A DNA stretch of 64,000 nt from Escherichia coli (GTDB taxonomy: Bacteria; Pseudomonadota; Gammaproteobacteria; Enterobacterales; Enterobacteriaceae): assembly GCF_044324875.1 (NCBI RefSeq), contig NZ_CP172185.1; one strand, 5' to 3'. The stretch's first letter is position 1, and every line of letters begins with the position of its first letter. The notes below the pieces were generated by a model. The model saw nothing but the letters and a program-made list of their open reading frames with translations, was not told the DNA's origin and searched no databases. This document shows, piece after piece, positions 3,604 to 16,979 of this stretch. The position numbers and the translations under genes are program-made.

Positions 3604-3690
3604 TGTAGGCCGGATAAGGCTTTTACGCCGCATCCGGCAGCCGTTGCCTGATGCGACGCTCGCGCGTCTTATCAGGCCTACACAGCCCTT
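3604..3690. repeat. REP/BIME-type palindromic element (gccggatg / catccggc units)
   Basis: Inverted copies of the canonical REP core (ggccggataaggc...gccgcatccggca, tgcgacgc...gcgtcttatcaggcctaca) in the infB-rbfA spacer. Confidence 0.6.
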
Positions 3691-11110: not shown

Positions 11111-12355
11111 ATGGCAACACTAACCACCACCCAAACGTCACCGTCGCTGCTTGGCGGCGTGGTGATTATCGGCGGCACCATTATTGGCGCAGGGATGTTT
11201 TCTCTGCCTGTGGTCATGTCCGGGGCGTGGTTCTTCTGGTCAATGGCGGCGCTGATCTTTACCTGGTTCTGTATGCTGCATTCCGGCTTGATGATTCTGG
11301 AAGCTAACCTGAATTACCGAATCGGTTCGAGTTTTGACACCATCACCAAAGATTTGCTGGGCAAAGGTTGGAACGTAGTCAACGGCATTTCCATTGCCTT
11401 TGTGCTCTATATCCTGACTTACGCCTATATTTCTGCCAGCGGTTCGATTCTGCATCACACCTTCGCGGAGATGTCGCTGAACGTCCCTGCACGGGCAGCT
11501 GGATTTGGTTTTGCACTACTGGTGGCGTTTGTGGTGTGGTTGAGCACCAAAGCGGTCAGCCGGATGACGGCGATTGTGCTGGGGGCGAAAGTCATTACGT
11601 TTTTCCTCACCTTCGGTAGCCTGCTGGGACATGTGCAGCCTGCGACATTGTTCAACGTCGCCGAAAGCAATGCGTCTTATGCACCGTATCTGCTGATGAC
11701 GCTGCCATTCTGTCTGGCATCGTTTGGTTATCACGGTAACGTGCCGAGCCTGATGAAGTATTACGGCAAAGATCCGAAAACCATCGTGAAATGCCTGGTG
11801 TACGGTACGCTGATGGCGCTGGCGCTGTATACCATCTGGTTGCTGGCGACGATGGGCAACATCCCTCGTCCGGAGTTTATCGGCATCGCCGAGAAGGGCG
11901 GTAATATTGATGTGCTGGTACAGGCGTTAAGCGGCGTGCTGAACAGCCGTAGCCTGGATCTTCTGCTGGTTGTGTTCTCAAACTTTGCGGTAGCGAGTTC
12001 GTTCCTTGGCGTAACGCTGGGTTTGTTTGACTATCTGGCAGATCTGTTTGGTTTCGATGACTCGGCTATGGGCCGCTTGAAAACAGCATTGTTGACCTTT
12101 GCACCGCCTGTTGTGGGTGGTTTGCTGTTCCCGAACGGATTCCTGTACGCCATTGGTTATGCTGGCTTAGCGGCTACCATCTGGGCGGCAATCGTTCCGG
12201 CGCTGCTGGCCCGCGCATCGCGTAAACGCTTTGGTAGCCCGAAATTCCGCGTCTGGGGCGGCAAGCCGATGATTGCGCTGATTCTGGTGTTTGGCGTCGG
12301 TAACGCACTGGTGCATATTTTATCGAGCTTTAATTTGCTGCCGGTGTATCAGTAA
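11111..12355 (+). CDS. mtr: Tryptophan-specific permease Mtr (414 aa)
   Basis: Polytopic membrane protein of the aromatic amino acid permease family; translation matches Mtr. Confidence 0.95.
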
Positions 12356-12415
12356 TTGAACGAGCCGGATGAGCAGTTTTCATCCGGCAATAATTCACAA
12401 GTACACGAGATGGTA

Positions 12416-12946
12416 TCAAATAAACCCCTGTTTATTATAAAGTTCTTCAGCGAGAGCTTCCCCGTGCTCATCGAAAAAAGCATCGGCGATAGTTAAATTT
12501 TCTGCCTTAGGATTTGCCGTTATTTTGCTACCATTGGCATCAAATTCGAGCGCGATAGCGGTCTCCGAACCCCACCAGTAATAATAAATTAGCGCAAAAT
12601 TATTTTCCCCTGGCGTAATAAACTTCTCGATTCCCCGCACACAGGCCATGAGTGGCATGAAGATTTCATAGCTCTCTGAGAGAAATATGTGATCCATCGT
12701 GACTATCTGTGTTTCTTTATTAAAGTTGATATGTTCGGCATAAATATTCTTTTCACTTTCACCAGAATTACAAGCTGCAAGATTGTTAAGCATTTTTGCA
12801 GGATCGCCGTACAACCGCTGCTTCTCGATAAACCATGGCAACCAGTCGTCATGGTCTTTGATATTTGTTGCTGGTGAATGGAAAAACTTCTCGAGGTTAC
12901 TCTCGGTAATATGTGCATGAAGAAAAAAGGAAGCCGGTTCACTCAT
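12416..12946 (-). CDS. Hypothetical acidic cytoplasmic protein (176 aa), not recognised
   Basis: Intact ORF with no signal peptide or TM segment; sits in a segment I do not recall from the K-12 mtr-yhbW junction; no family assignment possible by eye. Confidence 0.6.
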   Translation of the reverse strand: MSEPASFFLHAHITESNLEKFFHSPATNIKDHDDWLPWFIEKQRLYGDPAKMLNNLAACNSGESEKNIYAEHINFNKETQIVTMDHIFLSESYEIFMPLMACVRGIEKFITPGENNFALIYYYWWGSETAIALEFDANGSKITANPKAENLTIADAFFDEHGEALAEELYNKQGFI

Positions 12947-13103
12947 AATGATTTTCTCTGGTAATAAGTCGATTTGTTCATTTCTCTGTTTGGCGATGAT
13001 AAAACGATGACTATTTTATAAAAGTACAGAACTGGACCTTTCATCTATTTCATATCATAAGAAAATATATACTTGAACTGGCTCAGAATAAGCGGAATAC
13101 GAA

Positions 13104-13823
13104 ATGGGGCGTAAAGGACTACTTGCTATTGTATTGTTGAGCCTGTTTATCGCCATGATTTTTCAATTTTTCTGGCCTGCCCCACACGATGAACACGTTT
13201 TCCTGCCAGTTGAAAAACCTGTCGCACCGTCTTTAAAAATCATTCATCCTGGTGACCAGTTATTTATCCGCATTCTGAAAGCGGAAGATAAGCTGGAACT
13301 GTGGGCAAGCACCAACAACAAGCCTTACGAACTCTATAAAACCTGGACTATATGCGCGTGGTCTGGTGGCTTAGGGCCAAAACACAAACAGGGGGATGGT
13401 AAAAGCCCGGAAGGTTTTTATGCCACCAACAAAGAGTTGCTTAACCCAAACAGCCGCTATCATCTGGCATTTAATATTGGTTACCCGAATGCTTACGATC
13501 GGGCAAACGGCTACACCGGTGATTTCATTATGGTTCACGGAAACTGCGTTTCGGCGGGCTGCTATGCCATGACCGATGCTGGTATTGAAGAGATTTATCA
13601 ACTGGTGGCGCAGGCGCTGAATAGCGGGCAGAAGAGCGTGCCGGTGCATATCTTCCCGTTTGCGATGGACGAAGAAAATATGCGCCAGGCGCAGGTATGG
13701 CCGGAATATAATTTCTGGCGTATGTTGAAGCCCGGCTATGATTACTTTGAAAAAAATCGCCGATTGCCAACCATCACCGTTGAAAACCGGCGTTATAAAA
13801 TCAGCCCAACAACTCTTCCTTAA
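13104..13823 (+). CDS. YafK/DpaA-like L,D-transpeptidase-fold (YkuD) protein with N-terminal signal/anchor (239 aa)
   Basis: N-terminal hydrophobic segment; strong similarity to my recollection of E. coli YafK (SGGLGPK, GDxKSPEGFY, [14 protein letters not shown], [15 protein letters not shown] with conserved His/Cys, GYDYFE). Confidence 0.75.
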
Positions 13824-14808
13824 CATCCATCGCCAGTTCAAACGAATGCAGGCGCGCCTGGTGATCGAAAATCTGCCCGTTAACCATAATCTCATCGGCG
13901 TCGGTTTCGCGCAGGATCGACTGCAAGCCGTGACGCACTTTCGCTTTATCACCCACCAGCGACATACTCAGCGCCTGCTGCACGCCATACTGCTCGGACG
14001 GTGACCAGAACTGATCCATATTTTGAATCGGCGGCGGCAGTTGCCCGGTTTCGCCACGGCGCAGCTTCACAAAGGCTTGCTGCATTGAGGTAAACAGAAA
14101 TTCAGCGTCGCGGTTGCTGTCGGCGGCGATAATATTGATGCACACCATCGCATACGGTTTTTCCAGCCGTGCCGACGGTTTGAAGTTGCTGCGATAAAGA
14201 TGCAGCGCCTGGAACAACATATCCGGCGCGAAGTGTGAGGCAAACGCAAACGGCAGACCAAGCTGCGCCGCCAATTGCGCGCTGTAAAGGCTGGAGCCTA
14301 ACAACCACACGGGGATTTTCTCGCCATAGCCTGGTACCGGGCGCACATGCGGATTGGGATCGCGGGCGTCAAACCAGTCCACCAGCTCCGCGACATCGCG
14401 GGGAAAATTATCAATATCGCCGCTCATATGACGACGTAGAGCCATCATGGTTCGCTGGTCACTACCCGGAGCACGACCCAGCCCCAAATCGATTCGCCCC
14501 GGATAGAGCGTATTAAGCGTGCCGAACTGTTCGGCGATCACCAATGGTGAGTGATTAGGCAACATCACGCCGCCAGACCCCAGATGCAGCGTAGTGGTAT
14601 TCGCCGCCAGATAGCCAATCAAAACTGATGTTGCAGCACTGGCAATGCCGGTCATATTGTGGTGTTCCGCCAGCCAGTAGCGATGATAGCCGCGCTTTTC
14701 AGCCAGACGGGCGAGGTCGAGAGAGTGGGAGAACGCTTCTCGCGCTGAAGAACCTTCGGGAATGGGGGCCAGATCGAGTAGCGAAAACGCAATGGTTTTA
14801 TCAGTCAT
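13801..14808 (-). CDS. yhbW: Luciferase-like (LLM-class) monooxygenase YhbW (335 aa)
   Basis: Translation matches YhbW; stop overlaps the 3-prime end of the preceding + strand ORF. Confidence 0.93.
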
Positions 14809-15775: not shown

Positions 15776-16771
15776 TCACTGCCATTTACGGTGATACGCG
15801 CCAAGGGTGGTCTGCGTGCCTTCGGACATCGACCCGAGCGTCTCCATCCACGCGCTTTGCGGTACGAAGTTTTGCGGATCGGCCTTACAACGGTCGATAG
15901 CCTGACGCCAGACTTTCGCCACCTGGCTGACATACGCCGGGCTACGCTGGCGGCCTTCAATTTTCACCGAAGCAATATTCGCCGCCATTAACTCCGGCAG
16001 CAGTTCCAGGGTATTGAGACTGGTGGGTTCTTCCAGCGCGTGATAGCGCTCGCCGTCCACCAGATAACGCCCTTTACACAGCGTCGGATAACCTGCGTTT
16101 TCGCCATCCTGATAACGGTCGATCAGCACTTCGTTCAGGCGGGATTCCAGCCCCTGCGGCGTTTGTTGCCAGCGCACGAAACGGGCCGGAGAACACGCAC
16201 CCACAGTGTTGGGCGACTCACCCGTCAGATACGACGACAGATAGCAACGCCCTTCCGACATAATGCACAGGCTGCCGAAAGCAAACACTTCCAGCGGGAC
16301 AGGTGTGACCCGAGCCAGTTGTTTCACCTGATGAATCGACAACACGCGCGGCAGCACCACGCGTGCAACGTCAAAATGGCGATGATAAAAGTTAATCGCC
16401 TCTTCATTGGTCGCCGAAGCCTGCACCGATACGTGACGTTCAATATGCGGGTAACGTTCGGCGGCGTACTCCAGCATGGCGAGGTCGGCGAGGATCAGCG
16501 CGTCGGCACCCAGCTGCGCCGCCATATCCACGGCGCGCTGCCAACGGGCGTAACCGTCCGGATGCGCAAAAGTGTTAATCGCGATGTGAAGTTTGCGGCG
16601 ATGTTGATGGACAAAACTCACCGCTTCCTGCAATTTTTTCTCGGTAAAGTTAAGGCCGGCGAAGTGACGGGCATTAGTATCATCTTTTAGCCCGATATAA
16701 ACAGCATCTGCGCCGTTTTCGATGGTCGCCTTAAGCGCCGGGAGATTTCCGGCAGGGCAGAGCAGCTCCAT
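15776..16771 (-). CDS. ubiU: O2-independent ubiquinone biosynthesis protein UbiU (U32 peptidase family, 331 aa)
   Basis: Translation MELLCPAGNLPALKAT... matches YhbU/UbiU; immediately upstream of ubiV. Confidence 0.9.
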   Translation of the reverse strand: MELLCPAGNLPALKATIENGADAVYIGLKDDTNARHFAGLNFTEKKLQEAVSFVHQHRRKLHIAINTFAHPDGYARWQRAVDMAAQLGADALILADLAMLEYAAERYPHIERHVSVQASATNEEAINFYHRHFDVARVVLPRVLSIHQVKQLARVTPVPLEVFAFGSLCIMSEGRCYLSSYLTGESPNTVGACSPARFVRWQQTPQGLESRLNEVLIDRYQDGENAGYPTLCKGRYLVDGERYHALEEPTSLNTLELLPELMAANIASVKIEGRQRSPAYVSQVAKVWRQAIDRCKADPQNFVPQSAWMETLGSMSEGTQTTLGAYHRKWQ

Positions 16772-16979
16772 AATTTTTCCTGAAGGTTGCGCTATCAAAG
16801 CGCAAAAATGTTAACGAACTGGGATTTTAGTTAACCTTGCTGCGACAATTTTTGATTTAAGGCAGTTAAAGTTGTATTGGTGGTAGCAGCAATTTCATAT
16901 GGAATTGTTGATTTATACCGCTATGTTATTTTTCTGATATGGCAAAATAGGATGATTGTTGAAACAGGGAGTAAAACTC

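Follow-up and report, generated by a model that had tools for sequence, protein, structure and literature searches.

Why do a few strains of Escherichia coli carry two genes between mtr and yhbW, where K-12 MG1655 has these core genes adjacent with a spacer of 117 bp, and what may the two genes do? The question arises from a stretch of 64,000 nucleotides of E. coli DNA (contig NZ_CP172185.1), here called the window, which is 100% identical to the respective part of E. coli 042 (NC_017626.1), the reference copy used throughout. The two genes are orf176, encoding a 176-amino-acid protein that is most likely cytoplasmic, and ldt239, encoding a 239-amino-acid protein of YkuD fold; they are divergently transcribed and both intact in 042. 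An initial annotation, made from the letters alone, had taken them for an "accessory insert" that varies between strains, with two intact divergent open reading frames (ORFs), an AT-rich gap of 157 bp and a 23-bp overlap with yhbW, with no integrase, insertion sequence (IS) or tRNA around them, and with a short spacer between mtr and yhbW in K-12, and all that it observed has been borne out by the ORF list and the genome comparisons, its interpretation in part. The feature is probably a genuine strain-variable, non-mobile two-gene chromosomal islet; in Enterobacteriaceae the pair would have occupied the interval between mtr and yhbW for long, and ldt239, a gene additional to the core dpaA, is likely to code for a cysteine amidase of the YafK/DpaA subfamily that is exported via Sec.

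The variability itself is plain. A 1,434-bp core of the segment, used as query, is matched at 93.7-100% identity in 183 of the 5,426 complete E. coli genomes (3.4%), always as a single chromosomal copy, and the flanks, searched with 12300-13900 as query, are matched in 5,332 of these genomes. In islet-free genomes, megablast homology ends at position 57 of the latter query and restarts at position 1506, and these junctions delimit the variable segment (Table 1). The islet lies at the same locus in all five annotated islet-bearing E. coli genomes that were fetched (042 and four others). At the empty site of strain TUM14771, a spacer of 116 bp (L002 1555-1670) reaches from just past the TAA of mtr to the TAG of yhbW; the YhbW protein is identical in 042 and TUM14771 (WP_000130380.1), its stop codon being TGA in islet strains and TAG at the empty site. 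This spacer holds a palindrome, GCCTGATGCG...CTTATCAGGCCTA (its end also written TTATCAGGCCTA), the motif of which has a second copy in the window at 3646-3680, and which we take to be of the repetitive extragenic palindromic (REP) kind. It appears that the alternative allele at the mtr-yhbW site is a repeat element of the REP/BIME (bacterial interspersed mosaic element) type.

The segment has none of the marks of a mobile genomic island, be it an integrase or transposase, a tRNA or att target, or flanking repeats. No integrase or IS was found near it, all neighbours being core genes (deaD, mtr, yhbW, ubiV and ubiU in the RefSeq annotation of 042), and there is no tRNA in window 1-30000. A check for direct repeats at the junctions, which had been proposed at the outset, brought up only short ones at chance length and identity. 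Neither gene is carried by plasmids or phages: the only match in the plasmid collection is a mis-filed chromosome record of 4.9 Mb, and the only two matches in the phage collection (tblastn) are unannotated and 47-51% identical, one of them on a 2.9-kb fragment.

It is the occupancy of the site in other enterobacteria that points to its age. A Salmonella enterica assembly (L004) has mtr, an orf176 homolog, a YkuD gene and yhbW in this order, and so do enterobacterial metagenome loci (L006-L009), Superficieibacter electus (L010) and the Klebsiella oxytoca group (L022-L024), where an intact homolog was confirmed by tblastn. A scan of the GTDB species representatives matched Superficieibacter alone, since the islet is missing from the E. 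coli and Salmonella genomes that serve as representatives; the pair is thus apparently absent from the reference Salmonella genome, as judged from the lack of a match to the GTDB representative, which presumably is LT2. Also the perfect GC-rich hairpin between the stop codons of mtr and orf176 (-18 to -19.6 kcal/mol, z -3.5 and -3.8), which is present in the window as a single copy, is kept in Salmonella, in the metagenome taxon and in Superficieibacter, in the latter with a compensatory change from A-U to G-C; it has no T-run and was missed by a simple terminator scan. In the genera beyond Salmonella, the islet genes are 68-77% identical to those of 042 and the flanks 80-85%, and these values would be compatible with, but no proof of, a vertical descent of fast-evolving genes, as the synonymous sites are saturated in both. 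With the same pair at the same site in other genera and with the conserved hairpin, occupancy of the site looks old in Enterobacteriaceae, and the empty state of most E. coli, which have a 116-117 bp spacer with a REP-like repeat instead of the pair, looks derived. Of the "accessory insert", the first word can therefore be kept, the islet being accessory in E. coli, but the second word holds only in part, as the polarity that it implies is not supported.

Lateral movement concerns the version of the segment shared by E. coli and Salmonella. Between these two, DNA identity is 92-96% in the islet and 83-86% in the flanks (mtr, yhbW and ubiV), and dS is 0.19-0.23 in the islet genes as opposed to 0.75-0.94 in mtr and yhbW; a low dS and a high identity next to such diverged flanks mean that the segment crossed between E. 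coli and Salmonella. The high-identity tract extends from ~12320 to ~13870 and thereby coincides with the islet edges, and the identity between the Salmonella and E. coli islets falls inside the range of islet diversity within E. coli. The exchange presumably took place by homologous recombination in the conserved flanks, and later within-species recombination may have removed the foreign flanking DNA up to the edges of the indel.

Such an exchange could also be part of a true insertion, in which E. coli was ancestrally empty and a minority lineage received the 1.45 kb by homologous recombination through mtr and yhbW, with Salmonella or another enterobacterium as the donor. The islet genes have a GC content of 41% and 47%, the flanking genes one of 53-56%, and this difference of 10-13 points, which came out of a comparison suggested with the initial annotation, fits together with the prevalence of just 3.4% a gain by an originally empty E. 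coli, as do the dS of only ~0.2 in the islet and the end of the high-identity tract at the islet edges. These points weigh against an old occupancy that was simply retained, and E. coli may have either kept the pair or re-acquired it. On the other hand, an insertion has to account for the lack not only of integrase, IS and tRNA but also of a target-site duplication, and for three other enterobacterial groups in which this site holds the pair and the hairpin as well; the transfer between E. coli and Salmonella may have run in either direction, and the islet cannot be recent in E. coli, as the pairwise identity among five E. coli copies is 93.4-99.2% and the islet thus is as diverse as the adjacent flanks. 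A true insertion is therefore considered somewhat unlikely, and it is in part compatible with the favoured old occupancy, namely if an old site was laterally re-seeded.

Some further details of this diversity may be mentioned. Across Salmonella and most islet-bearing strains, conservation of the region between the two genes is 92-98%, but in strain 2017-02-2CC (L011 4086-4242) this region is only ~79% identical to 042, with both coding regions at 94-97%; the regulatory region of that strain may have been replaced or may evolve fast. Among islet-bearing E. coli, mtr and yhbW (window 11111-12355 and 13824-14808 versus L011-L013) have a dS of 0.12-0.26, and ubiV is less diverged than these two at the DNA level (96.6-98.4% versus 94.7-98.2% identity), a pattern that points to recombination, or else to old alleles in linkage with the islet.

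As to the products, ldt239 belongs to the DpaA-type proteins. Its best family is NCBIfam NF040599 (LdtF_DpaA_YafK), which is matched with 1.2e-75 and 253.7 bits over profile positions 6-224 of 242, and its closest solved structure is PDB 8ikr (1.6e-64, aligned end to end), which is labelled 'YkuD domain-containing protein' and the aligned sequence of which matches E. coli DpaA. To K-12 DpaA, the identity is 51% over 196 amino acids. Residue roles are known from the DpaA structure paper, in which Lys83 was found to be essential and mutants in Tyr109 and Tyr131 had less than 5% activity (PMC10653827). Lys83, Gln86, Arg108, Tyr109, Met133, the HG motif, Cys143 and Ala145 of DpaA are all kept in ldt239, the catalytic loop of which aligns with IHGDCVSIGCYA, with Cys153 and Ala155 corresponding to Cys143 and Ala145; at the position of Tyr131 there is a Phe, which keeps the aromatic packing and loses the hydroxyl. 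As dpaA is present in 5,423 of the 5,426 complete E. coli genomes (99.9%), ldt239 is an extra copy. A survey of DpaA conservation recorded 2,451 hits in 2,310 genomes (PMC8263019), and as the hits outnumber the genomes, some genomes must have more than one DpaA-like protein. Outside the syntenic group, the closest relatives of ldt239 are found in Budviciaceae, Leminorella and Snodgrassella. It is most likely that ldt239 hydrolyses amide bonds on the L-centre of meso-diaminopimelic acid (meso-DAP) in peptidoglycan stem peptides, and candidate substrates would be the Lpp-peptidoglycan link, a glycine at position 4, or another peptidoglycan-attached protein. The pairing of an exported peptidoglycan-enzyme-like product with an unassignable cytoplasmic one had been recognised already in the initial annotation, but the undescribed function that was expected there can be meant only for the 176-amino-acid protein, ldt239 being a paralog of a characterised enzyme. 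PHROG phrog_17304 (unknown function) is also matched by ldt239, with 4.2e-66, which means that catalogues of phage or prophage proteins contain YafK-like ones.

Several points weigh against a second enzyme that would do exactly what DpaA does. With 253.7 bits, ldt239 stays below the equivalog cutoff of NF040599 (365 bits), which makes it a subfamily relative with no equivalog call, and the same substrate as that of DpaA can thus not be assumed. Lys130 of DpaA is replaced by Asp, which reverses a charge within the substrate cleft. The N-terminus has a hydrophobic run of ~19-20 residues, followed by Pro-Ala-Pro and no clear signal-peptidase site, and, read by eye, the protein is possibly anchored in the inner membrane. 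In the literature, no paper was found on the four RefSeq protein accessions. The comparisons establish presence/absence, conservation of position, lateral exchange, family assignment and purifying selection, and it is enzymatic activity, substrate, topology and expression that are inferred. One may go further and propose that ldt239 is the founder of a separate clade of DpaA-like amidases that may be tethered to the inner membrane and would act on a substrate other than Lpp, for example by releasing another peptidoglycan-linked protein or by trimming non-canonical stem peptides near the membrane, which would result in a phylogroup-restricted envelope remodelling in strains such as enteroaggregative E. 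coli (EAEC) 042, with orf176 representing a new fold family of unrelated cytoplasmic function; as a whole, this proposal is quite unlikely.

Both islet genes are under purifying selection, with a dN/dS of 0.07-0.12 in orf176 and 0.14-0.20 in ldt239. This bears on the idea that the pair is a decaying functionless remnant, silenced and heading for deletion, to which the absence from ~97% of E. coli may be taken to point, as may the AT-rich regulatory region, inside the 157 bp of which no match to the sigma-70 consensus was detected, and the state of ldt239 in two strains. In PCN033 (L014 4244-4963), the gene has an internal stop, and in SC434 (L013 4244-4960) RefSeq flags it as an incomplete pseudogene without the C-terminus; both cases count also against the proposed role as an additional amidase, as they show ldt239 to be dispensable. 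orf176 is intact in both strains, so the two genes decay independently. However, selection of this strength is seen over a dS of up to 0.23, neither ORF is disrupted in E. coli 042, 2017-02-2CC, SCU-113 and Salmonella, and in other genera both are still 58-78% identical at the amino-acid level, which makes a mere remnant very unlikely.

Still less probable is a true L,D-transpeptidase that makes 3-3 cross-links or attaches Lpp to peptidoglycan, as could be concluded from the RefSeq name of ldt239 and from its YkuD domain (PF03734). The Pfam YkuD match is significant but weak (i-Evalue 1.8e-6, residues 89-169) in comparison with that to the DpaA family, the alignment with the single-domain DpaA structure 8ikr runs end to end, and the Arg that is conserved in true LD-transpeptidases is an Ala in ldt239, as it is in DpaA at position 145 (PMC10653827; PMC8263019). 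Cross-link formation by ldt239 would thus be unlikely, and the RefSeq name probably points to the wrong chemistry.

The second protein, orf176, is of 20 kDa, acidic (pI 4.7) and has no signal peptide. Its close homologs are few and restricted to Enterobacterales, but a profile search gave 131 representative clusters at E<=1e-3, all of ~180 amino acids, and relatives in the AlphaFold database (AFDB) reach other Proteobacteria and Bacteroidota. Conserved motifs are an N-terminal MSEPSS, followed by DWxxW, YD, FSEN and IYxYxWG. The fold is confidently predicted and has no solved relative. In 60 of 60 family members, there was no Pfam match at E<=1e-3, SMI1/KNR4 (SUKH) and other immunity families included, searches of NCBIfam and PHROGs gave nothing significant, and the PADLOC defence models contained no family at E<=1 for either orf176 or ldt239. 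Sequence and profile searches of the PDB returned no more than noise (fragments of protein G, for instance, or a repeat protein made by design), and all AFDB50 relatives are uncharacterised. The neighbourhoods of distant homologs that were looked at are variable and have no recurrent partner. orf176 is best described as a presumably cytoplasmic protein of an unclassified family, from the sequence of which no function can be inferred.

In Saezia sanguinis (L019 6430-7534), tandem paralogs of the orf176 family (174 and 177 amino acids) are encoded beside a DUF6882 protein and a type I restriction-modification (R-M) system, and nothing else hinted that this family may belong to an accessory or defence-island context. 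The least probable of all readings sees in orf176 an orphaned immunity-type protein from a polymorphic-toxin system, and in the locus a small islet for defence or competition. For this reading one can cite the small, acidic, cytoplasmic product of a low-GC variable locus, distant members in accessory contexts (Saezia with its type I R-M system, Corticimicrobacter beside hipBA, Sphingobacterium in an array of unannotated small genes) and two AFDB relatives labelled 'SMI1/KNR4 family', but it is at odds with the lack of SMI1/KNR4 or Imm matches in Pfam for the 60 members and of any PADLOC match, and with the absence of a toxin gene beside any of the homologs examined.

The two genes need not belong together functionally. 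A toxin-immunity module formed by the pair was considered and rejected, as ldt239 has a Sec-type N-terminus and orf176, which has none, would lie in the wrong compartment. A functional coupling was likewise dismissed, as the pairing is confined to the mtr-yhbW locus: the orf176 homolog of Chania has no YkuD neighbour, and in two Budviciaceae-related genomes (Budviciaceae, Leminorella) the ldt239 relative lies downstream of atpC, with no orf176 homolog. orf176 would thus be a co-resident of the locus and no obligate partner of the amidase.

The layout of the locus is given in Table 1. The 3' end of ldt239 and the last 23 bp of yhbW (13801-13823) overlap convergently, and the region between the two islet genes is far more AT-rich than the window as a whole (31.2% versus 50.9% GC). 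A search for structured RNAs across 12200-14000 gave no Rfam match at E<=1. Further downstream, the composition profile of the window has a GC dip to 0.42 at 16650-16949, downstream of the ubiV/ubiU region.

Table 1. Features of the mtr-yhbW locus, with positions in the window.
Feature	Position	Strand	Basis
mtr (tryptophan permease), left core flank	11111-12355	+	ORF list and RefSeq annotation of E. coli 042
Variable segment, 1,449 bp, 43.3% GC	12356-13804	.	megablast junctions versus islet-free genomes
GC-rich hairpin, 9-10 bp, between the stops of mtr and orf176; candidate bidirectional terminator	12364-12388	.	fold energy, conservation
orf176, 176 aa, WP_001294022.1 'hypothetical protein'	12416-12946	-	ORF list, RefSeq
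Divergent intergenic region, 157 bp, 31.2% GC; presumed promoters of both genes	12947-13103	.	ORF coordinates, GC
ldt239, 239 aa, YkuD-fold, WP_000532753.1 'L,D-transpeptidase family protein'	13104-13823	+	profiles, PDB 8ikr, DpaA alignment
yhbW (luciferase-like monooxygenase), right core flank	13801-14808	-	ORF list and RefSeq

If ldt239 is active, a second DpaA-type enzyme is present in ~3% of E. coli (the EAEC prototype 042 among them), in some Salmonella and in the K. oxytoca group, and this would bear on the regulation of outer-membrane tethering and of peptidoglycan-protein links, and also on how the phenotypes of dpaA/yafK mutants are to be read in such strains. With orf176, there is a conserved family, well-folded by prediction, outside the coverage of Pfam, NCBIfam and the PDB. 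The locus itself is a clean small case of an ancient presence/absence allele that has been kept and exchanged across species without a mobile element. The islet is no new kind of system, and the current understanding is not overturned by it.

Among the known systems, the one closest to ldt239 is DpaA (LdtF/YafK; P0AA99; 8ikr), with which it shares the single-domain YkuD fold, a length of ~240 amino acids, an N-terminal export signal, and the Ala in place of the Arg of the LD-transpeptidases. It differs from DpaA in its longer hydrophobic N-terminal stretch and in missing the 22-residue C-terminal tail, dpaA is core (99.9%) whereas ldt239 is accessory (3.4%), and the nearest relatives of ldt239 are those of the K. 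oxytoca group, Budviciaceae and Snodgrassella, not the DpaA of E. coli. The YkuD-family LD-carboxypeptidases Csd6, Pgp2 and Bd1075 have the same fold and give weak sequence matches (E 2e-6 to 3e-4), and they are hydrolytic enzymes and not transpeptidases, as is proposed for ldt239, but they are multidomain proteins and far more distant; Trp158 of Csd6, the aromatic residue of its D-Ala pocket, is a Met in ldt239, as it is in DpaA. The locus, in turn, resembles the small non-mobile E. coli islets that alternate with REP/BIME spacers, as these likewise lie between convergent core genes, have no mobility genes, and are presence/absence alleles with a REP-like spacer as the alternative. Unlike at those sites, the filled allele between mtr and yhbW occurs at this position in other genera too, and its identity to the Salmonella copy is far above that of the flanks.

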